DNA of 64,000 bases from Leptonemataceae bacterium (GCA_965227295.1 OZ245742.1:4032001-4096000); one strand, 5' to 3'; counted from the stretch's first letter, positions 14,671 to 46,254 are shown. Notes: generated by a model from the letters alone, not told the origin. Numbers and translations: made by a program.

Positions 14671-14849
14671 TCATCAATGAATTGATCAGGGGACCGGATC
14701 GCAACCAAAAGACACACGTCGCCCATCCCCGTGGGTGGTTTTTGGTGGTGGGATGATACTGGTGCATGACCTACCGGAGGCGCCGCGCGGCGGCCGCCCT
14801 GGTGCGATTAGCTGAAAAATGCGCGGCGGTCAACGAAAAATGTCACACC

Positions 14850-15753: not shown

Positions 15754-15836
15754 CCGGAGCACCGCTCCGGCTCCGAATCGTGAGACCCCAAACGATCCTT
15801 GACGCCGTCGCCCGCATCCCCACGCTATCCCCGCCC

Positions 15837-17018: not shown

Positions 17019-17146
17019 GATAGTTTCGTTTCCGACCAATCCCCCGGCGCGAATTTCCTGATCTTCGCGAAAGCACTTTACAACCGTCCCGGCGCGGAAA
17101 ATCCTATGGGCGAAGGTCGCCGCGCCGCCGATACAGAACCACAGGC

Positions 17147-18958: not shown

Positions 18959-19014
18959 GCGCGGACTGCGGGTTAAAAACGTAACCATTCATTTCCGGGG
19001 GCGTCTCATCGGCA

Positions 19015-20125: not shown

Positions 20126-22558
20126 TTAAAAGTTACTGGCGGGGGCCATGTTGCCGTAGAACTCCAGCACCTCCGGAATCTTCGCTTCCACTTTTCCGCC
20201 GGAGACCTGCACGAACTTGCGTTTCTTCAGAACCTTGAGGCCGCCGCTGGTAATCTTCCTGGCGTCGCGCGTTAAGTAATTCCCGGGATGAGTTTGTACG
20301 AACTCGTCCACCATGGCCGGCAGATCGGCGACGGGCAGGGCGGTTTCGGCCTCGCACAACAATCGCGCGATGATGTGATTCGGCAGCACGCGCAGTTTCT
20401 TCGCCCAGCCCTGCTGGATCTGAAAACCCAGGGCCGTCATGGGATCCTCCGCGTTGATGAACTGCGAAACCCGCACCGGCTCGGCGACGTCCATGAAAAC
20501 GCGGGTGCGGTGTTTTACAAAGGCGCTCACGTCGGTGCTTTTCGCCACACCCGCGAACTCCAGGTCCTCGGGAATGTTTTCGTACGACACGGCCAGAGGG
20601 ACAATGAGAATCTCCGCGCCGGAATGTTGGTAGGCTTCCACCGCCGTCGACAGCAGGCCGGTCTTAATCGGAACAATGCCGCCGGTGCGGCTGCGCGTGC
20701 CTTCCGGGTATACAAGCGAAGGAATGCCCATCTCCAGCATCATGGTGGCGTAACGCGTGAGGCATTCGAGGTACAGAATGTTGCGCGTGCGTTCGCGGTC
20801 CACGGCGTAGGCGCCCAGGGATTTGAGGATCCAGTTCCAGAACGGACTCGTCATGAGATTCGAACCCGCGGCGTAGCGCGGGATCGGCAGGCCGGCGCCG
20901 TAGAGGCCGTAGCCCACTTCCACGGAGTCCAGGTGCGAACGATGCGTGGGGGCGTAGAGAATGTTGTAGCGCGCGGCGAGGGACTTCAGCTCTTCGATCT
21001 CACCGCCCACGTGCGGGATGGCCGAGCCGGGACGGAGGCCGCCGACCAGGGTACGCAACGGGCCGATGGTGTGAATCAACGCCGTGCGCACCGTGGGGCT
21101 GTAGGAGTCCGAGATCTCGTCGACGTAAAACTCGATCAACTCCTCCACCGTTTCGCGAATGTGATCGGGATCGGCCGCGTCCATGGCCTTCCACAACGCG
21201 AGTTCCTGGGGCAGGGCTTCCAGTTCGCGACGATTCTTTTTACGCCGCGCCTTTTCCACGCGGCGCTCCAGGTTCTTTACAATGTTCGGCGCCTGTTTGT
21301 GCACGCGGTCGATCATGCCCCGGGAACCGCTCACGTGGCGGAAGATACGATTTTCGGTGAGCTTCTTGAAGTTGTGCCCGGCGGTATGGGCGAGGCCGAT
21401 TTTTTTCGTCGCCGTGGAATCCTCGTCCGGGGTGGGAATCTTTGGGCGTCCGAACAAAGTAATGAGACTCTCCGGCGTCTTGCGGCGGGAGAGCACGTCG
21501 AAGATCGTCGTGTAGAGCGGTATCTTTACGTCGTGATCCTCGGCGAGTTCGAGAATGGGGGTGAGGGCAAAGGCCCCTTCCACGAGATCGGCGCTCTCGC
21601 TCACCTCACGTTCAATGAACTGCGTCGGCCGAAAGAAAAGTTCAATGCGTTCAAAGAAGCCGGGATCGTTCTCGTGGGATAACGTCTGCCGCATGAACTG
21701 CATGCCGTAACCGCGGTTGCGGCTGTTGGGGGAGGTCGCCGTGGTGACGATGTCCGCGAGCCCGGAGACGCCGAACAACGTTGCCGGCTTCGCGCCCAGG
21801 GCGACACCCAGGCGAAACATTTCTTTGAAGCCCTGACTGACGAGCAGTCCTTGAAGATTCGAGGCCGCCCCGGGCATGACCTCGGCCATGCCGCAGGCGA
21901 TGGCGATGGGATTCTTCAGCGCCCCGCCGATTTCGGTGCCCAGGATATCCGTCGTGGTGGACACGCTTATGAATTCGTTCGTGAGCAGATCCTTGAGCGC
22001 CTGGGCCGTATCCCGATCTTCACAGCCGACGTTGAAGTACGTGTAGTTCGATGCATAGATTTCCGCGAGCAGGCTCGGACCGTTCACCACCGCCACGCGC
22101 AGTTGCCCGGTATCCAGGCCCTTGCGCCGCGCGCTTTCGCGGACGAATTGTGAGAAAGTCCAGAGATGCGAACCGAATTTACGGCGGCTCGCGCGGGACA
22201 GGAGACCCTTCGTAAGAATCACGAACAGGTGAGCGCAGTTCGGCGCGAGGTGATCCAGCAGATGTTCCACCGTATCCTCGAACTGCCGCGACGGCATGGC
22301 GGCGAACAGAGCCTGGGGGCCGTCTTCGAATTCGTCGTACTCGTGGATGACGTCGACATTCTCGTGCAGACGATACGGAGAGCCCAGGACCTGACCCATG
22401 CGGTCCTGGCTCAACCGGCGGGCGTCCCGGGGATCGGGATACCAGAGGCGAACCGGGCCGCCGGTGCCTCCGGCCAGGAGCGAGGACAGGATGAGTCCGA
22501 ACGGGCCGCCGCCCAGGACCGCGAAATTCATTTTTTCGAAATCCAGAGGCTCGGTCAT
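20126..22558 (-). CDS. gpsA: Fused NAD(P)H-dependent glycerol-3-phosphate dehydrogenase / PlsB-type glycerol-phosphate acyltransferase
   Basis: N-half: GGGPFG, GGALKNPIAIACG, GLADIVTT..SRNRGYG. C-half: HRSHLD (HX4D), YPEGTRSRTG. Confidence 0.85.
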   Translation of the reverse strand: MTEPLDFEKMNFAVLGGGPFGLILSSLLAGGTGGPVRLWYPDPRDARRLSQDRMGQVLGSPYRLHENVDVIHEYDEFEDGPQALFAAMPSRQFEDTVEHLLDHLAPNCAHLFVILTKGLLSRASRRKFGSHLWTFSQFVRESARRKGLDTGQLRVAVVNGPSLLAEIYASNYTYFNVGCEDRDTAQALKDLLTNEFISVSTTTDILGTEIGGALKNPIAIACGMAEVMPGAASNLQGLLVSQGFKEMFRLGVALGAKPATLFGVSGLADIVTTATSPNSRNRGYGMQFMRQTLSHENDPGFFERIELFFRPTQFIEREVSESADLVEGAFALTPILELAEDHDVKIPLYTTIFDVLSRRKTPESLITLFGRPKIPTPDEDSTATKKIGLAHTAGHNFKKLTENRIFRHVSGSRGMIDRVHKQAPNIVKNLERRVEKARRKKNRRELEALPQELALWKAMDAADPDHIRETVEELIEFYVDEISDSYSPTVRTALIHTIGPLRTLVGGLRPGSAIPHVGGEIEELKSLAARYNILYAPTHRSHLDSVEVGYGLYGAGLPIPRYAAGSNLMTSPFWNWILKSLGAYAVDRERTRNILYLECLTRYATMMLEMGIPSLVYPEGTRSRTGGIVPIKTGLLSTAVEAYQHSGAEILIVPLAVSYENIPEDLEFAGVAKSTDVSAFVKHRTRVFMDVAEPVRVSQFINAEDPMTALGFQIQQGWAKKLRVLPNHIIARLLCEAETALPVADLPAMVDEFVQTHPGNYLTRDARKITSGGLKVLKKRKFVQVSGGKVEAKIPEVLEFYGNMAPASNF

Positions 22559-22680: not shown

Positions 22681-25600
22681 ATGAAGAATCTTCTCCCGTT
22701 TTTTATTCAGCAGCGCCTGCACGAAGAGACATACGAGGGCTCCCTCCCGGCCCACACGATGTTTATGGACATCTCGGGCTTCACGCCCATGACCGAGCGG
22801 CTCATGCAGGAAGGAAAAGAGGGCGCGGAGATTCTTTCGGCCGAGATCAATCGGCTGTTCACTGCACTCATCGAAGCGGTCTACAGCCGCGGAGGCATCA
22901 TCACCGGTTTTGCCGGCGACGCCTTTACGGCGATTTTTGACGTGGAGGTCGGCGAGAAGCCGTTGCAGATTCTGGAAGCCGCGCAGGAGATCCAACAGAT
23001 CTTCAACGATCACGGCCACGCGGAGACGCGCTTCGGCAATTTCCAGCTTCAGGTGAAGGTCGGTCTGTCCTCGGGCCTGGTGCAGTGGGGCATCACCGGT
23101 TCCGGGGGCGCGCGTTGTTATTACTTTCGCGGGCCGGCCATCGACGGCTGTGCGCAGTCCGAGCAGCACTGTGACAGCGGCGAGATCATCCTGGACGATG
23201 CGATTTTCGCGAAGTACTCCGACGACGAGCGGCCGTCCGTCGAAGCGAAGGCGCCGGGCTATCATCGTTTCGTGGAACTGTCCGTGGGCACCGAGCGTTC
23301 GGTGGCGGAGGCCCTGTCATTTTTTCATCGCAACGAACAACGGCAGATCTACACCGAAACGGCCCTGGAATTTTTTCCCAGGGCGGCCATCGAGGCGCCG
23401 GCCGGAGAGTTTCGTAACATCCTGTGTTGTTTTGTGTCGCTGCGCAGTCCGGAGGATCACGACGAACTGGACGCCCTGGCCGCGCGACTGCGCGAACTCT
23501 CCGACGGCTACGAGGGGTACTTCAACAACCTGGACTTCGGCGATAAGGGTGGTACGGCATTGTTCGTTTTCGGCGCACCGACGTCTCACGAGGATGACGG
23601 CAGCCGGGCGGCGAACTTCGCCCTCGAGGTCCGCTCGTCCTTCGGGGAGCGCGTGCGGATCGGATTAAACTACGGCACGGCCTTCGCCGGCATGATCGGC
23701 TCGGACATTCGCTGTACGTATACGGTCGAGGGAGATGCCGTAAATACGGCCGCGCGGCTCATGACGTCCGCGGAGTGGGGAGAGATCCTGACCACCGCGG
23801 CGACGGCGCAGTTCCTCGGCCCCCTCTTCGCATGCGAGGATGCGGGCCGGCGAGAATTCAAAGGCAAGTCCGAAGCGATAGCCGTGAGCAAACTCACCGA
23901 TAGAAAAGAAGCAACGTTCGAGGACTTCGACGCATCGCTCTTCGTCGGCCGCGAGGCGGAACTGGAAGAGTTGAGCAAGGACTTTCGGACGTTACTCGAC
24001 GATCGTCGTTTCGCCGGTGTACGTTATATTTACGGCGAGGCGGGCAGCGGCAAGTCGCGTTTTCTGCATGAAGTCTTTGCGAAGTACGGCGCGCCCGACG
24101 CTTCCGGGGACCGGGTGGATTTCGCGTTTACCCACGCGGACGGGATTCTCAAACGAAGCATGAATCCTTTCGTGAACTACTTCGTTACGCAGTTCGGCAC
24201 CCACGAGATCGATGACCCGGTCGCTCGTCGAGACGCCGTAGACGGAAGGATCACGGCTCTGCTCGGGCAAATCGAAGCCATGCCGGTACCCGACGACGAG
24301 CACTTGCGCGGACACCGGGAGACGGTGCTCGCCGATCTCTGGCGGACGCGTTCGCTCCTCGGTTACCTGGTGGACGCCGACGTGAGCGGCAGCCTCTACG
24401 AACAGCTCGACGTCAAAGGGCGCTTCGAGAACACCCTGATCGCGATCAAAGAGTACTTTAAGGCCCTGGCGTTGATTCGGCCCACTGTCATCGTCCTGGA
24501 AGATCTGCACTGGGTCGACAGTGACTCGTTAAGTGTGATTGAAAACATGTTACGCTACGTCGACGAATTGCCGCTGCTGGTCCTGGTTTCCGGCCGCTAT
24601 CGGGACGACGGCACCCGCCCGCGCCTCCGCCTGGTCGACGACGTCGTCGTGCGCAGCGTGGAGCTGTCCGCCCTCGAACCTCCGGCGGTGCAGGAGCTTG
24701 CCGGCCATCGCCTCGGCGGAGAGATTGCGGCGAATCTGCTCCAGTTTATCGGTGAGCGGACCCGGGGCAATCCGTTCTACATAACGGAGTTCTGTACGTA
24801 TCTGCAACAAAACGAGTTGCTGGCGAACCAGGCCGGCGTCCTGGACCTTGCCGACACGAACGTGGCGGACATTCCCGCGAGCGTCAACGCCCTCGTCACC
24901 GCCCGTATCGATCGACTGTCCCTGGAATTAAAAGAAGCCGTGCAGATTGCGGCGGTGCTCGGTCGCGAGTTCGATGTGCGCGTGTTGGGACGATTGCTCG
25001 GCCGGGAGGACATCGCCTCCGTTCTCGAACAGGGTCGCTCCGAACAAATCTGGGCGCCCACGGAAATCCAGGATGTGTGCACGTTTCAGAACGGCCTGCT
25101 GCAGGAGGTCGCCTACGAAATGCAGTTGCGGGATCGCCTGCGCGGAATTCACGGCCGGGCCGCGGAGATCCTGGTGGAACGCTACGGCGAAAATCCTGCC
25201 CGGGCCGCGGAAGTGGCCTATCACTACGAGCAGGCGGAGAATGACGACGGCGCGCGCCGGTACTACGGCCTCGCGGCGGACTACGCCTACGACAACTACA
25301 AGAGCGACAAGGCCCAGGAATTCTTCGACAAACTCCTGGACTATGCACAGGACACAGACGCAACCATCGCCATTCTGGAACGTAAGGTGAATTTACTGGA
25401 ACTTACGGGCCGCTGGGACGAGGCCCTGGGCATCATCAACGACGGGCTGCAACTTGCCGGCGAGGATCAACAGAAGGCCGGCGAGTGGAAGGCGCGCATG
25501 GGAGAGGTCTATCAGAAAAAAGGCGACTATGATCGCGCCGCGACCTACCTCTTCGAAGCGGCGAATCTGGGCAAAGCTCTGAATGCCGACCGATTGCTCG

Positions 25601-26679
25601 CCGACGCTCACGGTCATCTGGGGCGTAATTACTGGAGCACCGGTCGTTACGATAAGGCGCTGGAGTGTTTCGATGAAGCCGTCGAAGCGAATCGTCGCCT
25701 GAACGACCGCCGGGGCATCGCGTTGAGCCAGTACTATGCCGGCGTCGTATACCGGGATCGTAACGAGTACGACAGGGCCATGCAGCTTTACAATGACAGT
25801 CTGCGCACTTTCGAAGAGATCGGCGACCGGCGCTACGCAACGTACCCGCTCTACGATATCGGAATCATTCACCAGTACCAGGGGCGTCTGGCGGAAGCCC
25901 GGGAGTACTTCGAAAAAACCGAGAAGCTGTACGCCGAGATCGGCTATCGCAGCGGTTCTTCGGCGACCCTGCTGAACCTTGGCGTCATCGAGATGCGCCG
26001 GGGTGAGTACGATAAGGCCCTGGAATACTTCGCGCACGCGCTTTCGGTGGCGGAGGAAATCGGCGAGTCCATGGCCGTGGGTTATACGCTGTTCAGCATT
26101 GGTACGGCTTATTATCATCTCCACCGCTACGACGAAACGCTCAAGCACTTCCAGCAGGCCTTTACAATCATGCGTAAGATCGGTGCGCGCGGTTACTACG
26201 GTTACGTCTTCGCGTACCTGACGTGCACGTTCGCGCGGACCAACAAAGCCGCGAAGGCCCTGCACGCGGCGCTCCAGCACTTAAAGAACATCCAGGAACT
26301 CGGCGGTTCCGATGTGGAGAACGGGCGCACGCACCTGGGAATCGCCCTCGTGTTGGCCCAGGGCGGGAAGTTCGGTCCCAACGCGCGTAAGCTGCTGGAC
26401 GAGATCCGCTCTGTGACCGGCCTGCCGGACAAGGCGGATGCGTACTTTGAGTTCGCGGTGCAGACGGCCCGCAAGGCGGAGTACGTCATGACCCTGGTGC
26501 CGGCCCTGCGGGAGTACGGGGCCTACCTGGCCGGGCGGGCCTCCCGGGCCCCCTGGTTCGCGGAGCGGGCGAGGGATTGCTTGGCGGAGGCTCATAGCCT
26601 GGCGCAGTCCATGGGCCTCGACGGCGAGCGAGTGCTCATTGAGGAATACGCCGGCAGTCACGGCATCGAAATCGGTTAG
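22681..26679 (+). CDS. Class III adenylate/guanylate cyclase (two domains) - STAND ATPase - TPR protein (sAC/ADCY10-like architecture)
   Basis: FMDISGFT..FAGDAF; GDKG..GDAVNTAARLM; Walker A GEAGSGKS; Walker B IVLEDLHW; GNPFY; C-terminal TPRs. Confidence 0.9.
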   Translation: MKNLLPFFIQQRLHEETYEGSLPAHTMFMDISGFTPMTERLMQEGKEGAEILSAEINRLFTALIEAVYSRGGIITGFAGDAFTAIFDVEVGEKPLQILEAAQEIQQIFNDHGHAETRFGNFQLQVKVGLSSGLVQWGITGSGGARCYYFRGPAIDGCAQSEQHCDSGEIILDDAIFAKYSDDERPSVEAKAPGYHRFVELSVGTERSVAEALSFFHRNEQRQIYTETALEFFPRAAIEAPAGEFRNILCCFVSLRSPEDHDELDALAARLRELSDGYEGYFNNLDFGDKGGTALFVFGAPTSHEDDGSRAANFALEVRSSFGERVRIGLNYGTAFAGMIGSDIRCTYTVEGDAVNTAARLMTSAEWGEILTTAATAQFLGPLFACEDAGRREFKGKSEAIAVSKLTDRKEATFEDFDASLFVGREAELEELSKDFRTLLDDRRFAGVRYIYGEAGSGKSRFLHEVFAKYGAPDASGDRVDFAFTHADGILKRSMNPFVNYFVTQFGTHEIDDPVARRDAVDGRITALLGQIEAMPVPDDEHLRGHRETVLADLWRTRSLLGYLVDADVSGSLYEQLDVKGRFENTLIAIKEYFKALALIRPTVIVLEDLHWVDSDSLSVIENMLRYVDELPLLVLVSGRYRDDGTRPRLRLVDDVVVRSVELSALEPPAVQELAGHRLGGEIAANLLQFIGERTRGNPFYITEFCTYLQQNELLANQAGVLDLADTNVADIPASVNALVTARIDRLSLELKEAVQIAAVLGREFDVRVLGRLLGREDIASVLEQGRSEQIWAPTEIQDVCTFQNGLLQEVAYEMQLRDRLRGIHGRAAEILVERYGENPARAAEVAYHYEQAENDDGARRYYGLAADYAYDNYKSDKAQEFFDKLLDYAQDTDATIAILERKVNLLELTGRWDEALGIINDGLQLAGEDQQKAGEWKARMGEVYQKKGDYDRAATYLFEAANLGKALNADRLLADAHGHLGRNYWSTGRYDKALECFDEAVEANRRLNDRRGIALSQYYAGVVYRDRNEYDRAMQLYNDSLRTFEEIGDRRYATYPLYDIGIIHQYQGRLAEAREYFEKTEKLYAEIGYRSGSSATLLNLGVIEMRRGEYDKALEYFAHALSVAEEIGESMAVGYTLFSIGTAYYHLHRYDETLKHFQQAFTIMRKIGARGYYGYVFAYLTCTFARTNKAAKALHAALQHLKNIQELGGSDVENGRTHLGIALVLAQGGKFGPNARKLLDEIRSVTGLPDKADAYFEFAVQTARKAEYVMTLVPALREYGAYLAGRASRAPWFAERARDCLAEAHSLAQSMGLDGERVLIEEYAGSHGIEIG

Positions 26680-26700
26680 GTTTGCACTGCAAACTTTTAA

Positions 26701-27051
26701 TTAATCAATATTAATGGCGATGCGTTTTACGAAGAACTCGCCGGGTTCCCCGTCTTCGGCTTCTTCGCGGACCACGCCGTCCAACTGCATCACCTTTCCG
26801 GTGTAGAACTCCCGGAGCATGCCGGTGAGTTTCCCGCTGATGATGTAGCGACGTTTCCCGTCCTGGACCGTTTCCGTGAGGATGAGGCGTTTGCCTTCCG
26901 TATGCAGGCGGCCGACCTTACGGACAAAATCCTCCGTCACGTTGGTCTCGCTTTCCGCGGATCCCGCGCAGGCGGTCGGCCCCGCCAGTGCAAGCGTCAG
27001 GATCGCGCAGGTTAGGATGGCATGAGCAGGACGTAAATACTTTGTTAGCAT
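26701..27051 (-). CDS. Small exported or lipoprotein, OB-fold-like hypothetical
   Basis: Hydrophobic leader ending GPTAC; beta-rich mature part. Confidence 0.6.
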   Translation of the reverse strand: MLTKYLRPAHAILTCAILTLALAGPTACAGSAESETNVTEDFVRKVGRLHTEGKRLILTETVQDGKRRYIISGKLTGMLREFYTGKVMQLDGVVREEAEDGEPGEFFVKRIAINID

Positions 27052-27250
27052 AGTTGAAACAACAGAAACATACAATGTAGAGCAAGGTCAGCGAACCCAG
27101 CATCCTTACATCCGGTGGAATTACAAGAGATAATCCGTCGATTCGCTTACGCACTTATACGTAAAACCTTAGAGTATTTCCACCGGAAAACATGAAAAAT
27201 ATACATTTGATTTGACACGGGACTTCAGACGGGTGCACGCTTCCGACGCA

Positions 27251-27580
27251 ATGAGAGGGTCGGTCAGGATCGACGTTCTTCAATATACGGAAGGCGTGGA
27301 GCCGGAAGACGAAGACGGCGAAGATTACTCCGGGATTCGTACGGCGGCTGTAGAGCATCGGCGGGACGTCCTGCTGTCGGTGCAGTCGGCCAGCCGCGAG
27401 GCTGTACTCTCCGAGCTGATTGACGGGGATGTGCGGGAGATTCTGGTCCTGGAGCACACTGTCGTCGACATCTACGCCGGGGAAGACAACCGCGATGTAG
27501 TGGAAGTACGGGGGTTTCGCCACGTCGCCGGTAACGGCTATGAACGTTGCCGGCTCGTGTTCTCACCGGGGACACCGTGA
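27251..27580 (+). CDS. Small acidic hypothetical protein translationally coupled to the sensor kinase
   Basis: Its stop overlaps the GTG start of the kinase (GTGA at 27577-27580); start uncertain (27212 TTG or 27251 ATG). Confidence 0.6.
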   Translation: MRGSVRIDVLQYTEGVEPEDEDGEDYSGIRTAAVEHRRDVLLSVQSASREAVLSELIDGDVREILVLEHTVVDIYAGEDNRDVVEVRGFRHVAGNGYERCRLVFSPGTP

Positions 27581-28893
27581 CCGGGCAATTGCTGCTGCAA
27601 AGAATCTTCGGCCTGCCCGGCGATCTCTTCACGACGGCCTCGGCTCGTTTCGTTCGAAGCGTGCAGCTCTACGAATCCAACTTCCTGTGGATGTGCTCCG
27701 TGGGCGGCGCCTTCTTTCCGGTCTACTGGTTCGTCTGGAGTCATGTCTTCCCGCAGCCTTACGAGAACCTGGCGTTACGATCCGTCGGCATGGTCTTAAC
27801 CTTCGGCCTGGCCCTCAGCCGTTACTGGCCGCCCACGTTGCGCGTGCGCTGGCTGGTACCTTACGCCTACGTCACACTCCTGTTCGTGTTCCCGTTTTTC
27901 TTTACGTACATGACACTCATGAACGGGGCCGTGCGGGCCTGGGTCATGTCGGCGCTGGTGGCGTATTTTTTGATGATTCTACTCATCGATTGGATTAATG
28001 TCATTGTGCTGTTCAGTCTGGGTACGGGGGCCGCGTATGCGGCGTTCTACTACGCTACCGACGGTCGGCCCATGCCGCCCGTTTACGTCGAAGACCTGAC
28101 GGTCATCCTGTTTTTGATTGTGATGGGTTCGCTGTTCAACTACCGGGCGGAGATGCTGCGCCGGGAGCGCGCCCGGGCCATGTTCCTGCTCGGCGCGCGC
28201 ATGGCCCACGAGATGCGCACGCCCCTGGCCGGCATCAAGATCGGGGTATCCGGCATTGCCCGGCAACTGGAACGCCTGTTCGAAAAAGCCGGCAAGGAAC
28301 AACGCCGACGGATGGCAGAGTTCGACCATCTGAAGCAGGATATCGTCTCCCAGGCAAACTATGCCGGCACGATCATCGACATGTTGCTTTTGCATACCGC
28401 GCCGGGGCAGAAGCTGGAACCGGATGAACTTGAACCCATCGGGGTTCGGGAAATCGTAGAGACGACTCTGGCCAACTATCCGTTTATTTCGAACGAAGAG
28501 CGGGCCCTGGTGGTCCACGAACCGGGGCCCGACGCCGTCTTCTGCGGTAAGCGGACCCTGGTCATCTGTGTCCTGTACAATCTACTCAAGAACTCACTCT
28601 TCGAAGTGCATACGGCCGGTGACGGAACCATTCGCATCTACGCCGTGCGCAACAGTTCGGAAGGCGTGGTGCACCTGTACGTTCGCGACACCGGGCCGGG
28701 CATCCCGCCGCACGTCTTGCCCCACGTCTTTGATCAGTTCTTCACCACGAAGCGCGGTTTCGAAGGTGCCGGCGTCGGACTCTGGAACGTACGGAACATT
28801 ATGGAAAGCCTGGGCGGTCGCATCTATGTGCGTTCCCAAACCGGCGAGTACGCCGAGTTCGAGCTCGTGTTTCCGTTAAGTGATAAGTGTTAA
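27577..28893 (+). CDS. cqsS: CqsS/LqsS-like alpha-hydroxyketone autoinducer sensor histidine kinase (no receiver domain)
   Basis: 6-TM sensor with FPVYWFVWSHVFPQPYENLALR, FPFFFTYMTLMN and WVMS, as in CqsS; H-box MAHEMRTPL, N-box NLLKNS, DTGPGI, GAGVGL. Confidence 0.85.
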   Translation: MTGQLLLQRIFGLPGDLFTTASARFVRSVQLYESNFLWMCSVGGAFFPVYWFVWSHVFPQPYENLALRSVGMVLTFGLALSRYWPPTLRVRWLVPYAYVTLLFVFPFFFTYMTLMNGAVRAWVMSALVAYFLMILLIDWINVIVLFSLGTGAAYAAFYYATDGRPMPPVYVEDLTVILFLIVMGSLFNYRAEMLRRERARAMFLLGARMAHEMRTPLAGIKIGVSGIARQLERLFEKAGKEQRRRMAEFDHLKQDIVSQANYAGTIIDMLLLHTAPGQKLEPDELEPIGVREIVETTLANYPFISNEERALVVHEPGPDAVFCGKRTLVICVLYNLLKNSLFEVHTAGDGTIRIYAVRNSSEGVVHLYVRDTGPGIPPHVLPHVFDQFFTTKRGFEGAGVGLWNVRNIMESLGGRIYVRSQTGEYAEFELVFPLSDKC

Positions 28894-28985
28894 GGTGGCA
28901 CAGGAGGTCGAGAGCTTCTGAGACATTGCATTGGCTCTCAAACATTTCAAAAGATCTCTCTATCCCTCTTCCTCCTGTGCAAAGC

Positions 28986-30170
28986 TCAAGCCATGCCCGC
29001 AAACGGATCCGGCCACATTTCCGGGCGCACCTGTTCCCGCACACCGACGATCACGGCCTTGATTAACTCCACATCATCCTCACTCAGTGCCGAGTGAAAA
29101 CTGAGGCGTAACAACGTTCGGTCCGGCGGGGTGGTGGGTTTCACGAATACCGCCCCGAAGACGTCGAAGTCTTCGAGGCGATCGCGTAGAAACGTGGTGC
29201 TCTCCTCGGAACCGGCCAGGAGTGGAATGATCGGCGAGGCCGACAGGGCCGCGCAGGTGTAACCCTCCACGATCATATGATTGCGCACGTCCTGGACCAC
29301 CTCGAACAGGCGTTGCCGCCGGTCGTCGGCATCACGCACGATCTCTAACGTACGCTGAATGCGAGCTACGTCGTGGGGTTCGAGCATTGTCGAGAAGATG
29401 GCCGGGCGGGCCTCCCAGGGAAAGTACGAGAGGATGCGCTGCGGTCCGAAGATGACGCCGGCCCGGCTGGCGAAGGCCTTGGCCAGGCTCGCGGTAATGA
29501 AATTGACCCGATCGCTCAGGCCGAGATCGGCCACCAGGCCGGCCCCGTGCGGGCCGAAGAGGCCCAGGGAATGCGACTCGTCCACGACCAGGGTGCAATC
29601 GTAGCGTTCACATACCTCGCAGATTGCCTGTAGCGGGGCCCTGGTCCCCAGGGCGGAGTAGACCGAATCCACCACGACTGTTCCGGAACCGTAGCGGCGA
29701 ATGCGGGACTCCAGGTGATTTACGTCGTTGTGCTTGAACATGCGTGCCGTGGCGCCGGCGCTGTGTGCTCCCTCCCAGAGCGACATGTGTGCAAAACGAT
29801 CGATATAGACCGGCGCCTGCCGGTCGGCAATGGACTGGATCAGGCCGACGTTGGCCGCGTAGCCCGACTGGCAGAGGACCGCAGCGTCCATCTGTACGTA
29901 CTCCGCCAGGCTTTGCTGTAGCCTGGAGTAGGGGCCGTCGTACTCGTTGAGAAAGACCGCCGACATCTGCGGCCCGCTTCCTTCTTCGAGCAATCGCCGG
30001 CTCTGGGCCACCAAAATGGCCGGATGCCGGGACAATGCCAGGTAGTCGTTCGAGTTCAGCAGAATCGAACCACTGCCGGGCACCCGGCCGTTGAAGACGT
30101 TTCCGCCATGCCTGGCGATCCGCGTCTCATAAAACTTATCCACACGCTCTGTCAAAAATTCTGGTAACAT
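28986..30170 (-). CDS. cqsA: CqsA/LqsA-like PLP-dependent alpha-hydroxyketone autoinducer synthase
   Basis: LPEFL..RVD N-terminus, SNDYLAL..HP, MSAVFL, QSGYAANVGL, HMSLWEG, VDSVYS, VDESHSLG, TASLAKAF, PAIFS; adjacent to a CqsS-like kinase. Confidence 0.88.
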   Translation of the reverse strand: MLPEFLTERVDKFYETRIARHGGNVFNGRVPGSGSILLNSNDYLALSRHPAILVAQSRRLLEEGSGPQMSAVFLNEYDGPYSRLQQSLAEYVQMDAAVLCQSGYAANVGLIQSIADRQAPVYIDRFAHMSLWEGAHSAGATARMFKHNDVNHLESRIRRYGSGTVVVDSVYSALGTRAPLQAICEVCERYDCTLVVDESHSLGLFGPHGAGLVADLGLSDRVNFITASLAKAFASRAGVIFGPQRILSYFPWEARPAIFSTMLEPHDVARIQRTLEIVRDADDRRQRLFEVVQDVRNHMIVEGYTCAALSASPIIPLLAGSEESTTFLRDRLEDFDVFGAVFVKPTTPPDRTLLRLSFHSALSEDDVELIKAVIVGVREQVRPEMWPDPFAGMA

Positions 30171-30194
30171 AGTTACTAAAAAGCGTTAGATACG

Positions 30195-30251
30195 TAAGAA
30201 TCTGCCTACGCATTTTCTTATGCAAATATGAAATATACGCATATTTTCGTA
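30195..30251. promoter_or_regulatory. Cluster of putative NarL/RcsB-type operator boxes upstream of cqsA
   Basis: TAAGAATCTGCCTA (30195-30208) and TACGCATTTTCTTA (30207-30220) resemble the RcsAB box TaAGaatatTCctA; TACGCATATTTTCGTA at 30236-30251. Confidence 0.4.
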
Positions 30252-30259
30252 CAGCAAAA

Positions 30260-30373
30260 TTGCGAGGGTATCTCCCCCTCTGACGCTCCTCGCGCGGCGC
30301 CATCCATGGCTTAGCGCGAGGAGGCGCGGCCTTCCTGGCCGCGTGACTGTCAGAGGGGGAGACACCCTCGCAA
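30260..30373. repeat. Branched palindromic REP-like element
   Basis: 25-bp outer inverted repeat with one mismatch enclosing two inner hairpins (CTCCTCGCGC/GCGCGAGGAG; CGCGGCC/GGCCGCG). Confidence 0.7.
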
Positions 30374-30494
30374 AGGCGGGGGGAATTTCGTGCGGTATTG
30401 TCGTCTTCGGATGTGGCCCGGTAGCCAAATGCCCCCAATCGGAGGGCATCGCTGACAACCATTGACTTATCCCCGTTTTCCGACACACCAAAAT

Positions 30495-31337
30495 TCAAGC
30501 GACCTCTAAATCCTCGAATTGATTCGGGCTCATAAACCCGATGCTACTATGAACCCTCCGGGGGTTGTAGAAGAGTTCGATGAACTCAAACACAGCCTCC
30601 CGGGCATGATCCACATCTACAAACTCGTCCGTGCCGATCCCTTCCTTGAGGATCGAGAAGAACGATTCCACACACGCATTGTCCCAACAGTTCCCCCGCC
30701 GGCTCATGCTTTGCACGATGTTGTGGCGACGGAGTTCCACGCGGAACTCACGCGATGCATACTGCACGCCCTGATCCGAATGGAACATCAGCCCCTTGCC
30801 CGGCTGCCTCGTCTTCACGGCCATATCCAGCGCCGCCACGGCGAGTTGCGCAGGCATACGATCCTGCACGTCCCAACCGATGATGCGACGCGAGAACAGG
30901 TCCATCACAACGCATAGATAGACCCAGCCAATGCGCGTTTTCAGGAACGTGATATCCGAAGCCCAGACACGATTAGGTTGCGCCACGTTGAAGTTACGGC
31001 CGAGCAGATTCGGAGACGCCTTGAAGCGATGATTCGAGTCCGTCGTGCAGACCTTGAATTTTCGCCTTTGTTTCCCGCTGATTCCAGCCTGTTTCATCAG
31101 TCGGTGGATACGTGTTTTGCCCACGTATTCGCCCCAACCGCGCAGGATTTCCCGGATCTTGGCGACGCCGCAGCGACCTTGCTCGTGATAGGCCTGCACG
31201 ATCAAACGCGTAAGTCTGACATCTTCACGATCACGCGCCGACGGTGCACGCTTTACGAAGCGATAGAACGATTTTCGCGAAACCTCAAGTACGCGGGCCA
31301 TGCGACCGATTGGAAACTCCTCGCGATGAGCTTCCAT
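30495..31337 (-). CDS. IS3 transposase OrfB (DDE integrase core), expressed as OrfAB via -1 frameshift
   Basis: WASDITF, HSDQGVQY, CWDNACVESFF; slippery AAAAAAG on the minus strand at 31379-31385. Confidence 0.95.
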   Translation of the reverse strand: MEAHREEFPIGRMARVLEVSRKSFYRFVKRAPSARDREDVRLTRLIVQAYHEQGRCGVAKIREILRGWGEYVGKTRIHRLMKQAGISGKQRRKFKVCTTDSNHRFKASPNLLGRNFNVAQPNRVWASDITFLKTRIGWVYLCVVMDLFSRRIIGWDVQDRMPAQLAVAALDMAVKTRQPGKGLMFHSDQGVQYASREFRVELRRHNIVQSMSRRGNCWDNACVESFFSILKEGIGTDEFVDVDHAREAVFEFIELFYNPRRVHSSIGFMSPNQFEDLEVA

Positions 31338-31348
31338 GAACTCGAAAA

Positions 31349-31642
31349 CTACAGTTCTCTCGATAGCATGGCCGCGAACTTTTTTAGGATCGTGTTATCC
31401 ATCTTCAGTTCGGCGTTCTCTTTACGAAGCTGCTCCAGCTCCTCTTCGACGCTGAGCTTGCTGCGCTTCCCTTTGCCTTTTTCTTCTTTGGCCTCTCGAT
31501 CCATATACTCCTTCTTCCACTCACGCAAAGTCCAGTAGCTGATCCCCAGCGACGCCGACACTTCTTTCAGGGTGCGCTCACCCTCCACTACGGCCTTCAC
31601 GGCCTCCTCGCGGAATTCCCGCGGATACCTCTTCTTTTTCAC
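31349..31642 (-). CDS. IS3 transposase OrfA (HTH plus leucine zipper)
   Basis: RYPREFREEAV..VSASLGISYWTLREW, ELEQLRKENAELKMDNTILKK. Confidence 0.93.
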   Translation of the reverse strand: MKKKRYPREFREEAVKAVVEGERTLKEVSASLGISYWTLREWKKEYMDREAKEEKGKGKRSKLSVEEELEQLRKENAELKMDNTILKKFAAMLSREL

Positions 31643-31790
31643 TCTGACCTCCTTATTCAGGACGCCCGATTTAGTGTATCAGTTTTCGGGGATAAGCCAC
31701 ATTGCTAACCAGCGCTAATCACACATTAGCTTTATCAAACCAGACTCTGTGTCCTCTGTGCCTCTGTGGCAAAGGGACACTCAGCCCGGC

Positions 31791-32429
31791 CTAGTTCAGA
31801 CCTTTGCTGAGGGCATAGCGGATGAGGGCGGCTTTGCGATGGATGCCCAGCTTTTGCTTGATGTGCTCGATGTGCTTGTTGACCGTCGTGTAGGAGATGC
31901 CCAGTTCGGTGCCGATCATCTTGGACGAGTGCCCCTGGGCCACACAGATGAGCACCTGGAGTTCGCGGTCGGAGAGCGTGGCGAGCTGGCCTTCGCGGCG
32001 TGGTGTCGCCGGTTCGGGGGACATGATGCGGGGTTGTGAGAAGCCCGTGGAGATTGCCGTCTCGCCGGCCAGGGTTTTGCGTACGGCGTTCAGGATGATG
32101 TGTTCCTGTTCTTCTTTGATTACGTAGCCGCACGCCCCGCGGTTGAGGGCCTTGCGGATGAATTCCTGGTTCTTGTGGACCGTGAGGACGAGCACCTGGA
32201 TGTCCGGAAAGCCGGCCTTCAGTCGCTCCAGCGCCGCGATGCCGTCCATGCCGGGCATGCTGAGATCCAGGATGACCAGGTCACAGGAGCGGCCGGCCAG
32301 CAAGTCCAGCAGTTCCTTGCCGCTCCCGGCCTCACCGACCACTTCCAGGTCGGCCTCGGCTTCCAGCAACAGGCGGAGGCCGCTCCGTATCAGGAAATGG
32401 TCGTCTGCGATAATGATTCTACGCCTCAT
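31791..32429 (-). CDS. NarL/LuxR-family response regulator
   Basis: REC domain (IIADDH, DLSMPGMDG, GYVIK) plus LuxR HTH (LSDRELQVL..G.SSKMIGTELGISYTTVNKH). Confidence 0.95.
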   Translation of the reverse strand: MRRRIIIADDHFLIRSGLRLLLEAEADLEVVGEAGSGKELLDLLAGRSCDLVILDLSMPGMDGIAALERLKAGFPDIQVLVLTVHKNQEFIRKALNRGACGYVIKEEQEHIILNAVRKTLAGETAISTGFSQPRIMSPEPATPRREGQLATLSDRELQVLICVAQGHSSKMIGTELGISYTTVNKHIEHIKQKLGIHRKAALIRYALSKGLN

Positions 32430-32547
32430 GGGTTGAGCCGGCCAAAATTATATTTTAGCTCCGCTGATAATTTGTAAATATATTAATGGTCGGCCGGCAC
32501 TCTTTTCCGCTACCGCCAGGTGCGATTCGGCCGATATTATATACGAC

Positions 32548-33579
32548 ATGTTGCGACGTTTCGCGTTTTCGACGCTCTCCGTGTGCCTGGTGTTCGCCGC
32601 CGCGGGCGAGCTTTTTGCCCAGGTCGATCGGGACCCCCGGGGCGATCGGACGGTGGATTTCTGGAGCCGCTACGGTGCGGTGGAACTGGAATTCGAACGC
32701 ATCACGTTTTCCGCGAACGAGGACATCCCCGTACGTTTTCGGGTGAGCAATCGCGGTTATCGCGTCATTCGAATCTATCCTTCGGCCCGGCCGCTGTCCA
32801 CGTTTCGTTTTCTCGTCACCAATCGCCAGGGCCAGGAGATTCCGGTTCATTTCAACTCGCGCCAGTTCAACAATCGCGAGCTCGGGGACCGAACGGTGGT
32901 CAATCTCCAGGGTGAGATGGTCAAAGAAATCGTCCTGCACCCCGGCGAGAGCCTGGAAAAGACGTTGTACCTGAATGACTTCTATCGCCTTGAAGCCGGG
33001 CGGGAGTACCGCATTTCGGCTTATTTTTATCCGGATCAGCGGGATCAATACTTCGTGCGTTCGGCGGGCATTTCACGCATTCGCATCGACGAGCGGCGGA
33101 GCGACGGACGCCGGGACGGTCCGGAAAACGTCGACCTTCCCGACGGCGGTCGCACGCCGGAGTTGTCCCCCGAGGAAACGGTCTACCTGTTTCTGTCCGC
33201 GGAAATGCGCCGGAACTGGAAAAACTATTTGAAATATCTGGATCTGCCGCAGTACATTACGGCGTACGATCGTTTCGCATCCCGGTACGTCCAGGCGCGG
33301 GGCCACGAACGCCCGGATGTCCTCCGTTCGTTCGCGGACTATCTCACCGGCGATCCGGCCAACCGCCTGGTGCGCTTTCGCATCGAAGCGGTGGAGCCGG
33401 AACGCGACGGCGACGGACGGGTGCTGCCGAACGGGCGCTCGTTCGTGAAGGTGAAGGCCACCAGGGAGAGCGACGGTTTCACGGCCCGCTACGAATACAC
33501 ATACACCCTGGAACCGGGCCGCGGTCGCTCCGAGGGCTTCTGGAAGATCATCTACGTCAAGGCGCAATTGATTCGCTGA
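32548..33579 (+). CDS. Exported hypothetical protein upstream of fliM
   Basis: Signal peptide ending ELFAQ; Ig-like N-domain (LHPGESLEKTLYL) and NTF2-like C-domain ending WKII. Confidence 0.75.
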   Translation: MLRRFAFSTLSVCLVFAAAGELFAQVDRDPRGDRTVDFWSRYGAVELEFERITFSANEDIPVRFRVSNRGYRVIRIYPSARPLSTFRFLVTNRQGQEIPVHFNSRQFNNRELGDRTVVNLQGEMVKEIVLHPGESLEKTLYLNDFYRLEAGREYRISAYFYPDQRDQYFVRSAGISRIRIDERRSDGRRDGPENVDLPDGGRTPELSPEETVYLFLSAEMRRNWKNYLKYLDLPQYITAYDRFASRYVQARGHERPDVLRSFADYLTGDPANRLVRFRIEAVEPERDGDGRVLPNGRSFVKVKATRESDGFTARYEYTYTLEPGRGRSEGFWKIIYVKAQLIR

Positions 33580-33631
33580 TGGGAAGTGTTGGTCCACAAA
33601 CTGTTAGCGAGACAAATTTTAGAGTTACACC

Positions 33632-34657
33632 ATGACTGAAATCTTATCCCAGGATGAAATCGACGCGCTGCTCTCGGCGATCTCCTCCGGCGAGGTCGAT
33701 CCCGACGATTACTCCGCCGTGGGCGAACAAAAAAAGGTCAAGATCTACGACTTTCGCCGCCCGGACAAATTCTCGAAGGACCAGATCCGCACGCTCCAGA
33801 TGATGCACGAGACCTTCGCGCGTCTCACCACCACGGCGCTCTCGGCGCAGCTTCGCGCCCTCGTCGGCGTGCACGTGGGTTCGGTCGACCAGTTGACGTA
33901 CGAAGAATTCATTCGTTCGATTCCGAACCCCACGACCCTGGCCGTGATCAACATGGACCCGCTCCGCGGTTCGGCCGTCCTGGAGATCGACCCCAGCATT
34001 ACGTTTACGATCATCGACCGCCTCTTCGGCGGCCCCGGCGAACCCACGAAGATCACCCGGGAACTTTCGGACATTGAGATGTCCGTTATGGAAGGCATCA
34101 TCGTACGCATCCTCGGCAACTTACGGGAAGCCTGGTCGACGGTGATCGACCTGCGCCCGCGCCTGGGAAACATTGAAACGAACCCGCAGTTCGCGCAGAT
34201 CGTTCCGCCGAACGACATGGTGGTTTTGATCACGCTGGAAACGAAGGTCGGCGACGTGGAGGGCATGACGAACCTGTGTATCCCGTACATCACGATCGAG
34301 CCGATCATCTCCAAGCTGTCGGCGCAGTACTGGTACTCGTCCATTCGTCGCGGTGAGGCGGACGAGAACAAGGCCATCATCCAGGAACGCCTGGACCAGG
34401 TTACGATTCCGCTCCGCTGCGAAGTGGGCGAGGTGGAGTTGCCGTTGTCGGAAATCCTGGGTCTCGGTCCGGGGGACGTCGTTAAGTTGGGCGCAACGCA
34501 CATTAAGAGCGACATGACCGTGAAGGTGGGCGACCGCCAGAAGTTCAAGTGCCGGCCGGGTAAGATCGGCGGGCGGTTGTGCATTCAGATCGGTGAGACG
34601 ATTGACGACATCCCGGATGAACTGCTGGGATCTACGAAGTCCGAAGAAGAGATTTGA
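33632..34657 (+). CDS. fliM: Flagellar motor switch protein FliM (canonical copy)
   Basis: LSQDEIDALL CheY-P peptide, YDFRRPDKFSKDQ, DRLFGGPG, C-terminal SpoA domain. Confidence 0.97.
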   Translation: MTEILSQDEIDALLSAISSGEVDPDDYSAVGEQKKVKIYDFRRPDKFSKDQIRTLQMMHETFARLTTTALSAQLRALVGVHVGSVDQLTYEEFIRSIPNPTTLAVINMDPLRGSAVLEIDPSITFTIIDRLFGGPGEPTKITRELSDIEMSVMEGIIVRILGNLREAWSTVIDLRPRLGNIETNPQFAQIVPPNDMVVLITLETKVGDVEGMTNLCIPYITIEPIISKLSAQYWYSSIRRGEADENKAIIQERLDQVTIPLRCEVGEVELPLSEILGLGPGDVVKLGATHIKSDMTVKVGDRQKFKCRPGKIGGRLCIQIGETIDDIPDELLGSTKSEEEI

Positions 34658-35356: not shown

Positions 35357-36379
35357 ATGACTGAAATCATCTCCCGTGAAGAACTCGAGAATCTGCTCGC
35401 CGCCATGCAGGCCGGCGATCCGGCGCGCCACGACACCGGGGAAGGGCCGCGCTCCGAACGCCCGCGGCGGGTGAAACCCTACGACTTTCTGCATCCGGAT
35501 CGTTTTGCCCGGGAGCAACTCAAGACCCTGGAAATGATCCACGAGAACTTTGCCCGCACGGCAAGCGCCGCGCTGTCCGCGCGTCTGCGCAGCATCGTGT
35601 CCATGCGCGTGGTGGACGTCACCCAGGTGAGCTTCGAAGAGTTCGTCCGCCTGGTGCCGAACCCGACGACCCTCGGCATCATCAACATGGAACCGCTGCG
35701 CGGTTCGGCGGTGCTGGAACTCGCACCGGAAATGAGCTTCGCCATTATCGATCGACTCTTCGGCGGCCGCGGCGAACCCGTGAAGCTGCACCGGGAAATC
35801 TCCGACATCGAAATGAACGCCCTCGAAACCGTGATCGTGCGGATGTTAGGCGACCTGCGCGAGTCCTGGGTGCAACTCGTCGATCTGCGGCCGCGCATCG
35901 CGCGCATCGAAACGAATCCGTACTTTACGCAGATCGTTCCGCCCCGGGACATGGCCGTGCTCATTGTCTTCGATACAAAGATCGGCGACATCGAGACGTT
36001 CGTTAACCTGTGCATTCCGTACATTACCATCGAGCCGATCATGAACAAACTCGCGCCGCACGAGTTCTATCGTCAGGGGGAGAGCAGCGGCGGCCACGAG
36101 ACGGCACTGAAAGAACGCCTGGACGAGATGCCCGTGTCGGTGCGTTGTGAAGTGGGCGAGGTGGAATTGCCGCTGAACACCGTGGCCGGCCTGGAAGTCG
36201 GCGACGTGGTGAAGATCGCGTCGACGCACGTGCACGATGACATGACGTTTATGATCGGCGAGCGCGCGAAGTTCAAGTGCCGGCCGGGTAAAATCCGCGG
36301 ACGTTTGTGCGTGCAGATCGGCGAGATGATCGAAGGCGTGCCCGACGAATTCTTGAAGTTCGCCGGGGATGAAGATTGA
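35357..36379 (+). CDS. fliM: Second, diverged FliM paralogue
   Basis: Aligns end to end with the 33632 copy (YDFLHPDRFAREQ, DRLFGGRG, NLCIPYITIEPI, KFKCRPGKI); N-terminal peptide is ISREELENLL. Confidence 0.92.
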   Translation: MTEIISREELENLLAAMQAGDPARHDTGEGPRSERPRRVKPYDFLHPDRFAREQLKTLEMIHENFARTASAALSARLRSIVSMRVVDVTQVSFEEFVRLVPNPTTLGIINMEPLRGSAVLELAPEMSFAIIDRLFGGRGEPVKLHREISDIEMNALETVIVRMLGDLRESWVQLVDLRPRIARIETNPYFTQIVPPRDMAVLIVFDTKIGDIETFVNLCIPYITIEPIMNKLAPHEFYRQGESSGGHETALKERLDEMPVSVRCEVGEVELPLNTVAGLEVGDVVKIASTHVHDDMTFMIGERAKFKCRPGKIRGRLCVQIGEMIEGVPDEFLKFAGDED

Positions 36380-39110: not shown

Positions 39111-40128
39111 GCAGTTCTTCGTGTCGCCGCCGTTGCCTGTGCATACGATAGAGTTCGCGAAGTTCTCGTTCGTTTTCCCGGCGCAGTTCTTCTAAGATCT
39201 GCTGACCACGCTCTTCGCGCAGCTCTCGTTCTTCCTGTTCGGTTTCGCTCTCACGTACGTTGCGCAGTTCCGCCGCATCTTCGCGGCGTGTATCCAGGCG
39301 AAAGCGCAGGGGCTCGAACACGAATGCACGCAGATCGCTCCGGCTTTCTTCCGCGCGATACTCCAGGACGTACTCGCGACCGGGGGCGAGCGATGGAAAG
39401 ATCAGCAGGGCCTTCGTTTCGCGGCCGGGTGCAAGAACGCTCCGCCGTTCGTGCCGGCGTTCCCCGCGACGCAGTCGGTTCTTCCGGTGCGCTTCCTCTT
39501 CGGCCGGGGAAAGCGTGTGCCGGAGAAACAAGGATGCATACCAGTCCGGTACCGGATGCGAGAAGCGCAGGGAATCTTTTTGCGCGAAGGCGTACTCGTA
39601 GACGTAAGGATAGTTCCCGAAACCGCCGTAGTTTTCCGAGTACTCCCGCGCATCGATGGGCCGGAAGATGCGATCGTCGCCGGTATCGCGGATCTGAAAC
39701 CAGTATGTATTCAGTCGGACCGGCGTGTCGCCGTAGTTCAGGACCGCGAGATACAGGGCCGTGACTTCCGGCGGGCTGCCGTCGGCGAAGTCGGGGTCCA
39801 GGCGCCTGGCCTCGCGGCGAAGCTGCTCCCGGGAGAGGAACAGGCCGCGGGTTTCGAACGGCCGGCTGGTGCTGCGGGTAGTCTTAAAGTATAGTGAACG
39901 AAAATTAGTGATACTGTGAATACTGTAAGTCGAGCCGTTCGGTTCCGCCCTGTAGGTGTAGTGAAGGGCGGGAGCTGAATAGCACTGTATAAATACGAGC
40001 AAAAAAGCAATTCCGGGGCTAGTCAATCTTGAGTAAGAATGAAACACAGTTAATCTCTTTTTATTAAGAAATAGTTTGCAAATATTAGTTTTCGCTGAAG
40101 GTGGATCATCCTTGGACACAGGCTTCAC
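38974..40128 (-). CDS. Probable lipoprotein, divergent from the giant toxin gene (true start probably downstream of 40128)
   Basis: IAFLLVFIQC lipobox-like segment; Ig-like motif LAPGRETKALLIF; Glu/Arg coiled-coil tail. Confidence 0.6.
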   Translation of the reverse strand: MKPVSKDDPPSAKTNICKLFLNKKRLTVFHSYSRLTSPGIAFLLVFIQCYSAPALHYTYRAEPNGSTYSIHSITNFRSLYFKTTRSTSRPFETRGLFLSREQLRREARRLDPDFADGSPPEVTALYLAVLNYGDTPVRLNTYWFQIRDTGDDRIFRPIDAREYSENYGGFGNYPYVYEYAFAQKDSLRFSHPVPDWYASLFLRHTLSPAEEEAHRKNRLRRGERRHERRSVLAPGRETKALLIFPSLAPGREYVLEYRAEESRSDLRAFVFEPLRFRLDTRREDAAELRNVRESETEQEERELREERGQQILEELRRENERELRELYRMHRQRRRHEELLTPAETRAQTNSCAPCRPGTPGDRRSVSRASLRATECRSRTKESA

Positions 40129-40142
40129 GGGAGTGGTTTATC

Positions 40143-46253: not shown

Positions 46254-46254
46254 A

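Follow-up and report, generated by a model that had tools for sequence, protein, structure and literature searches.

We analyzed a 64,000-nt stretch of the genome of a Leptonemataceae bacterium (GCA_965227295.1 OZ245742.1:4032001-4096000; hereafter the window, with positions counted from its first letter), which carries a candidate quorum-sensing locus of the alpha-hydroxyketone type. To our knowledge, Vibrio, Legionella, and Janthinobacterium are the only genera in which signaling of this type has been elucidated. The core of the locus consists of three genes. The first encodes a sensor histidine kinase of the CqsS/LqsS family that lacks a receiver domain (27547/27577-28893, + strand). The second is cqsA, encoding a pyridoxal phosphate (PLP)-dependent autoinducer synthase of the CqsA/LqsA family (394 aa; 28986-30170, - strand), and the third encodes a NarL/FixJ-type response regulator, the candidate output of the kinase (212 aa; 31791-32429, - strand). 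The kinase and synthase genes are convergent, with a gap of 92 bp between them.

Calls of open reading frames (ORFs) and domain scans confirmed that all three genes are present where a first-pass annotation of the window had placed them, and in the same orientations. The E-values of these assignments, from 1e-17 to 1e-146, indicate that they are not chance patterns. The annotation had further described the regulator gene as lying directly upstream of the synthase gene and co-oriented with it. We found that the position and the orientation hold, but that the two genes are not adjacent, as a complete insertion sequence (IS) of the IS3 family (1237 bp; 30463-31699, - strand) had been overlooked between them. 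The element lies 292 nt from the start of cqsA, on its upstream side, and 91 nt past the regulator gene, and its insertion left all coding sequences intact.

Synthase and sensor kinase

The synthase scored 488.1 bits against the NCBIfam model NF005526 (alpha-hydroxyketone-type quorum-sensing autoinducer synthase), exceeding the cut-off of 428. It stayed below the cut-offs of the sister families BioF (TIGR00858; 241 vs 426) and Kbl (198 vs 460), and its scores against the serine palmitoyltransferase (SPT) and ALA synthase (ALAS) models were also under their cut-offs. Its best matches in the PDB, over all chains, were those of V. cholerae CqsA (2wk8, 2wk7, and 3hqt; 311 bits, E 7e-92, residues 2-370), and the next family, serine palmitoyltransferase, reached 149 bits. 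In the PDB alignment, K231 of the synthase, located in the motif SLAK, pairs with K236 of the CqsA chain, which we take to be the PLP lysine. All invariant and near-invariant columns of an alignment with 12 relatives (alignment A1) are kept as well. Pfam assigned only Aminotran_1_2, and close relatives of the synthase are already labeled 'CAI-1 autoinducer synthase' by annotation pipelines. Because a grouping with BioF/Kbl fails on both profile scores and structure matches, we place the synthase in the CqsA/LqsA family, as had been proposed. By analogy with this family, it is predicted to make a hydroxy- or amino-ketone signal.

The kinase comprises 448 aa when read from a TTG codon at 27547, or 438 aa when read from a GTG codon at 27577, the latter being the database form (P0001) and the start chosen in the first-pass annotation. 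We found HisKA and HATPase_c domains, an H-box histidine (His221), and N, G1, F, and G2 boxes, and no Response_reg domain. The N-terminus contains six hydrophobic segments with short links between residues 46 and 201, as judged by hydropathy. The HATPase_c match covers residues 341-445 and the protein ends about three residues later, at 448, showing that the C-terminal receiver of the Vibrio type is absent.

To place the pair among its relatives, we ran a scan with a 13-sequence synthase alignment, taking one genome per species, and kept the best 80 loci; the scanned collection did not include the genome of the window itself. An ORF homologous to kinase residues 1-205 was found at 69 of the 80 cqsA loci (blastp, E<=1e-5). 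Seven metagenome proteins come closest to the kinase, at 47-51% identity, and one of them, P0002, on a 3731-bp contig, was named CqsS by JGI. Beyond these seven, several hundred relatives follow at 43% identity or less, and several of them also carry the JGI name CqsS. The sensor homologues beside cqsA, together with the JGI names of relatives at 51% identity, support the earlier assignment of the kinase to the CqsS/LqsS type. The missing receiver had been put forward as a distinctive trait. The domain scan bears out the absence, but not the distinction, since all 120 relatives among the matches listed span 345-502 aa, and lack of a receiver is therefore the rule among environmental members of this kinase family.

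Searches with the sensor part named no known family. Pfam gave none, and MASE8 matched relatives below its cut-off and did not match the window kinase. PDB matches were confined to the cytoplasmic kinase core, with no solved template for the sensor, and ESM Atlas look-alikes of residues 1-210 scored at most 0.88 and fell in mixed clusters (unnamed, MASE8, PilS, and MASE2). Taken together, we are highly confident that the synthase and the sensor belong to the CqsA/LqsA and CqsS/LqsS families.

Related loci and the Leptospirales lineage

We compared the architecture of the 80 loci. A plain kinase is combined with a receiver-containing (LqsR-like) protein of ~340 aa in 58/80, all titled Pseudomonadota, and in most of these loci listed the gene for this regulator lies between cqsA and the kinase gene. 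The one example tested, from locus L010, matches PDB entry 6sy9 ('Response regulator', E 1.7e-84), which we take to be Legionella LqsR; a literature search on the code yielded no confirmation. In 10/80 loci, nine of them Chlorobiota, the receiver is fused to the kinase. No sensor-kinase homologue was found in the available stretch of 11/80 loci, several of which end within ~2 kb of cqsA. The remaining locus (1/80), L001, has a plain kinase with neither a fused receiver nor an LqsR-like regulator, an arrangement that none of the other 68 kinase-bearing loci in the sample shows.

L001 lies on a 6.44-Mb contig of a metagenome-assembled genome titled 'Leptospirales bacterium', and its synthase is 67-68% identical to that of the window. 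The other 79 loci are from Proteobacteria or Chlorobi, with synthase identities of 44-52%. L001 has an order in common with the window on both flanks, namely the GpsA/PlsB-like fusion (55% identity to the window), the cyclase/AAA/TPR (STAND) protein (52%), the kinase (46%), the synthase (67%), the regulator (61%), a hypothetical protein (65%), and the first FliM (96%). The L001 regulator gene is located 1.9 kb upstream of cqsA. This shared order on both flanks indicates that the pair was inherited within the Leptospirales clade, and that the ancestor shared by at least two divergent Leptospirales genomes already had it.

Other Leptospirales markers were also found. The window encodes TIGR04388 ('Lepto_longest') and DUF1554/LenF-like proteins, and P0246, an orthologue of the regulator, is named 'Leptospirales bacterium'. 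The spirochete-like host suggested by the first-pass annotation can thus be specified as Leptospirales-type, on the basis of the synteny with L001, TIGR04388, and DUF1554.

The NarL-type regulator and the cqsA upstream region

The regulator contains a Response_reg domain (94.9 bits) and a GerE domain (63.8 bits), and its receiver residues are complete (D9/D10, D55, T83, and K105). It reached no NCBIfam equivalog cut-off, the best score being that of MctR (166 vs 300), and it was therefore given no specific subfamily. A search with the regulator found 12 proteins at 57-97% identity, after which the identity falls to 50% or less. We also observed that P0241, on a 1861-bp contig from another data set, is 97% identical to the window's regulator, indicating that close relatives of the organism have been sampled elsewhere.

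Shared contigs of the relatives were inferred solely from equal sizes in bp. On this basis, regulator orthologues at 61-68% identity appear to share contigs with kinase and/or synthase relatives in four further assemblies. Regulator P0242 is matched with kinase P0002 and synthase P0122 (3731 bp), P0248 with kinase P0004 and synthase P0125 (81922 bp), P0249 with synthase P0124 and no listed kinase (21798 bp), and P0246 with kinase P0003 and no listed synthase relative (140402 bp). The last of these is possibly a listener-only form. The three proteins of the 3731-bp contig (449, 393, and 223 aa) would need ~3.2 kb, leaving no space for other genes. The three genes would then have to be directly adjacent, and this suggests a compact regulator-synthase-kinase unit. 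P0249 is identical to the L001 regulator, and P0124 is nearly identical to the L001 synthase (branch lengths 0 and 0.003). For the members that they share, the synthase tree and the regulator tree (24 rows) are concordant, with the window first, then the protein of the 3731-bp contig, and then the rest.

The 292-nt region 5' of cqsA, between the gene and the IS (30171-30462, - strand), contains two TACGCAT heptamers and a hairpin. The heptamers are located at 30207-30213 and 30236-30242, 37-72 nt from the ATG. In L001, a perfect 7-2-7 inverted repeat (TACGCAG-AA-CTGCGTA) lies 60-74 nt upstream of cqsA and accounts for 2/3 heptamer matches in its 21 kb. Paired heptamers in the 7-2-7 arrangement are the form of a NarL site. 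Upstream sequence of 120 nt or more was available for 79 cqsA loci. Within 150 nt 5' of cqsA, 76 of these have no heptamer, two have one, and only L001 has two. The whole window holds 12 matches to TACGCAK, against 10.2 expected.

From these data we propose a model for the locus. By analogy with the Vibrio and Legionella systems, the synthase would condense an acyl-CoA and an amino donor into a lipophilic hydroxy- or amino-ketone, the six-helix domain would sense this signal within the membrane, and signal binding would shift the kinase/phosphatase balance. Judging from the neighborhood, the phosphoryl group would most likely pass to the adjoining NarL-type DNA-binding regulator in one step, because both a fused receiver and an LqsR-type regulator are missing in the lineage. 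The regulator may in turn act back on cqsA via the paired TACGCA heptamers of its promoter. As a whole, a chromosomal alpha-hydroxyketone-type quorum-sensing locus of the Leptospirales lineage, with a proposed NarL output, is in our view the probable explanation. For the regulator as the cognate partner of the kinase, a claim that rests on the neighborhood, we consider the case evenly balanced. We put forward only tentatively the fuller version, a Leptospirales-specific one-step circuit in which the NarL-type regulator replaces LqsR or LuxU-LuxO, feeds back on cqsA through the heptamers, and belongs to a locus that varies within the lineage.

Family scans found no other regulator or kinase in the conserved neighborhood, and no LqsR-like gene was found in the window (tblastn best E 4.1) or in the L001 locus. 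The unusual wiring claimed in the first-pass annotation is therefore upheld with respect to the missing fused receiver and LqsR-like gene, but not with respect to the kinase-to-regulator pairing, which is suggested by the neighborhood.

Several observations weigh against the proposed circuit, and most of them favor an alternative that we consider somewhat improbable. Here, the synthase-kinase pair is real, but general synteny has retained the NarL-type regulator as a bystander, and the kinase signals to one or more regulators elsewhere in the 5.9-Mb genome. The whole neighborhood is syntenic with L001, so the position of the regulator may reflect general synteny and not function. The spacer between the regulator gene and cqsA takes unrelated DNA in both genomes, the IS3 element in the window and two opposite-strand short-chain dehydrogenase/reductase (SDR) genes in L001. 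For four orthologues (P0243-P0245 and P0247), no size-matched contig carries a relative of the kinase or the synthase, P0243 being found on 18 contigs of up to 554785 bp. In the regulator tree these four nest among the cqs-linked regulators, and it therefore seems that genomes lacking cqs can keep the regulator. The window covers 64 kb of a 5.94-Mb genome, and an LqsR-like or other partner could sit elsewhere in it.

We also compared the dimerization and histidine phosphotransfer (DHp) helix of 9 Leptospirales-clade, 10 hybrid, and 58 LqsR-paired kinases. The Leptospirales-clade helix is nearer to that of LqsR-paired kinases than to that of hybrid kinases, and differs at a few positions after the His. 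This likeness between sequences is not decisive, as it would neither favor nor exclude a change of partner. The CqsS/LqsS class of the kinase is likewise a sequence-based assignment, set by cqsA-linked homologues and JGI names and not by alignment to a characterized CqsS or LqsS. Finally, the heptamer was picked after inspection and comes from two genomes only; it is therefore a lead, and we think it rather unlikely that the regulator feeds back on cqsA through these sites. The points against a bystander regulator are the lack of any other regulator or kinase in the conserved neighborhood, the apparent regulator-kinase contig sharing in four further assemblies, including the 3.7-kb contig with room for only these three genes, and the missing LqsR-like gene in both the window and L001.

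We then considered the IS3 element itself. Its transposase matches NF033516 (327 bits, cut-off 160), rve (98.6 bits), and HTH_Tnp_1, and is encoded by orfA (31349-31642, - strand) and orfB (30495-31337, - strand). The terminal inverted repeats are 30 nt long and 73% complementary. Inspection of the sequence also shows that the element has TG...CA ends and is flanked by a 3-bp ATG repeat, and that orfA contains an A6G slippery motif close to its end. The element is a single copy in the window and coincides with a GC dip to 0.55. The intact 3-bp duplication indicates a simple insertion into a ~380-bp spacer, without deletion. Located between the regulator gene and cqsA, the element interrupts any read-through from the former into the latter.

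A near-perfect hairpin or three-way junction of 114 nt (30260-30373) is located between the IS3 end and cqsA. Its RNA has a minimum free energy of -96.7 kcal/mol (z -10), AAUUUUG follows next on the gene strand, and the structure is unique in the window. Rfam searches of 26000-34000 gave only sub-threshold hairpin matches (MIR2109, 41 vs 100; TwoAYGGAY, 31.8 vs 43). The hairpin could terminate transcription of the regulator gene, or it could represent a small repeat. A scan of 26600-32700 found three promoter-like and eight terminator-like sites, against 2.3 and 5.8 expected.

These features allow a second alternative, in which IS3 has uncoupled or silenced the circuit in this organism, which would then listen without producing, or would produce signal constitutively from an IS-borne promoter. 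The presence of a complete element 292 nt 5' of cqsA, whose intact duplication suggests a recent simple insertion, is consistent with this view, as are the very stable hairpin and the end branch of the window synthase, the longest in its clade (0.5 vs 0-0.39). But the three ORFs are intact, the synthase keeps the conserved A1 columns, and the AT-rich 292-nt region with the paired heptamers is still attached to cqsA. In L001, cqsA is likewise separated from the regulator gene, which indicates that cqsA probably has its own promoter. We therefore regard an uncoupled or silenced circuit as improbable.

To address the origin of the pair, we used a 61-synthase tree that covered the window, five metagenome proteins, and 55/80 loci (25 Paraburkholderia loci were left out), built by a quick search with a midpoint root and no outgroup, and not including Vibrio and Legionella. 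The window, L001, and the five metagenome synthases form one clade (SH-aLRT 100, stem 1.02), which falls outside all sampled Proteobacteria and Chlorobi. The first-pass annotation had regarded the circuit as horizontally acquired and had named a chimeric contig as a finding that would speak against it. A recent import or an assembly chimera could be argued from the fact that every other sampled cqsA locus is from Proteobacteria or Chlorobi, and from the IS in the locus. However, the GC content over the kinase-synthase pair (0.607) is like that of the flanks (~0.60 nearby), and synteny with the second Leptospirales genome extends over both flanks, with proteins that are 46-67% identical. A long stem separates the clade from every donor group sampled, and the window proteins are found on a single 5,938,550-bp contig. 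The cqs genes are not bracketed by the IS, which carries a 3-bp duplication of its own. Thus, horizontal acquisition is not shown, a chimeric contig is disfavored by the synteny on both flanks, and we judge recent import or chimerism very improbable. An ancient transfer into the Leptospirales ancestor is possible.

It is hardly credible that the synthase is an ordinary metabolic enzyme of the BioF/Kbl type beside an unrelated membrane sensor: it shares the alpha-oxoamine synthase superfamily with those enzymes and has only Aminotran_1_2 in Pfam, but it passes NF005526 and fails BioF and Kbl, matches CqsA with twice the score of any other solved family, and belongs to loci in which the sensor-domain family co-occurs with cqsA in 69/80 cases.

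Neighboring genes and comparison with known systems

Duplicated fliM genes and a toxin gene near the locus had been proposed as density-controlled outputs. We found that these genes exist, but their role as outputs was drawn from proximity alone and is not supported. Both fliM genes (first copy, 33632-34657, + strand; second copy, 35357-36379, + strand) are genuine, with 387 and 300 bits against TIGR01397 (cut-off 219.6). The first is 96% identical to the FliM of L001 and belongs to the conserved backbone, and the second is 54% identical. No counterpart of the second copy was found in the 21-kb stretch of L001 examined, where an ORF with an FGE-sulfatase domain lies beyond the first fliM. The toxin-like gene (40101-46253, + strand) encodes a 2050-aa protein with TIGR04388 and a PT-HINT pretoxin domain (residues 1719-1794), a domain architecture of the polymorphic-toxin type. 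An overlapping ORF of 186 aa (46231-46791, + strand) follows, which has no family match and is possibly its immunity gene.

The hypothetical protein of 343 aa (32548-33579, + strand) has no family match. Its gene is divergent from the regulator gene across a 118-bp spacer, and the protein has a hydrophobic N-terminus; the L001 counterpart (65%) shows a weak Big_14 match. By position, this gene is a candidate target of the regulator.

The two genes located between the regulator gene and cqsA in L001 (8045-8764 and 8800-9699, both - strand) are of the SDR/epimerase family, are divergent from cqsA, and have no homologue in the window. In V. cholerae, a dehydrogenase completes CAI-1 synthesis, and by analogy the L001 SDR genes might act on the signal.

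On the other side of the pair, the window encodes an adenylate-cyclase/AAA/TPR protein of 1332 aa (22681-26679, + strand), identified by the ORF listing and family scans. The 868-bp gap between this gene and the kinase gene holds an ORF of 124 aa (26701-27075, - strand) without a family match. In L001, the cyclase-STAND gene (12724-16920, - strand) is on the same strand as the kinase gene and 130 bp away, and the two are possibly an operon. Further out is a gene for an 810-aa fusion of a GpsA-like NAD(P)H glycerol-3-phosphate dehydrogenase with a PlsB/PlsC-like acyltransferase (20126-22558, - strand), whose 55%-identical counterpart in L001 is at 16989-19538 (+ strand).

If the proposed circuit is correct, Spirochaetota would have in this locus their first synthase-receptor pair for quorum sensing of this class, and the locus would vary by lineage member, through SDR genes that may concern signal chemistry, IS3 uncoupling, and a possible listener-only form. 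A conserved Leptospirales pair extends the alpha-hydroxyketone signal class to another phylum and offers an entry into the cell-cell signaling of free-living Leptospira relatives. If the regulator is a bystander, the finding reduces to a new taxonomic occurrence of genes that annotation pipelines have already labeled.

Searches of full-text literature, with subscription journals outside their scope, found no such system described in spirochaetes and no autoinducer synthase in Leptospira relatives. This agrees with the earlier statement that no characterized example was known in Leptospiraceae. In the available excerpts, the carriers listed for alpha-hydroxyketone signaling are Legionellaceae, Vibrionaceae, Burkholderiaceae, Chlorobiaceae, and Oxalobacteraceae (PMC5289986), and the CqsS-type six-helix cluster is assigned to Bacteroidetes, Chlorobia, and alpha-, beta-, and gamma-proteobacteria (PMC4821796); neither list includes spirochaetes. 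The Janthinobacterium Jqs system (JqsA/JqsS/JqsR) is grouped with the cqs and lqs homologues in the same excerpt of PMC5289986, and no Janthinobacterium locus is among the 80 compared here.

The Chlorobi-type cqs loci share with the window a homologous synthase (44-49% identity) and sensor domain (28-36%). They differ in that their kinase ORFs are 708-925 aa long, carry a fused receiver, and lie upstream of cqsA.

With the Vibrio CqsA/CqsS system, the window shares a synthase that aligns to V. cholerae CqsA with the presumed PLP lysine conserved, and the six-helix design of the sensor, as which CqsS is described in the available part of PMC4821796. In contrast to the CqsA/CqsS-LuxU-LuxO system, the window kinase has no receiver domain, and neither a LuxU-like protein nor a sigma-54 LuxO-like activator was found in the window. 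The sole match to the LuxO model was the receiver domain of the NarL-type regulator (E 7e-11, 41.5 bits, cut-off 800).

The Legionella Lqs system, which further includes LqsT, also has a CqsA-family synthase and a six-helix sensor kinase without a fused receiver. Its cluster order is given as lqsA-lqsR-hdeD-lqsS in the accessible portion of PMC5289986, and as far as this portion goes, the 58/69 kinase-bearing loci with a plain kinase and a ~340-aa regulator fit it, in the order synthase, regulator, kinase. Unlike Legionella, the window and L001 have no LqsR-like gene, the kinase gene converges on the synthase gene, and the neighboring regulator is a DNA binder of the NarL/FixJ type. In this lineage, the same sensor family appears to be connected to yet another, third type of output, which would make this locus useful for the study of how kinase-regulator specificity is re-wired.

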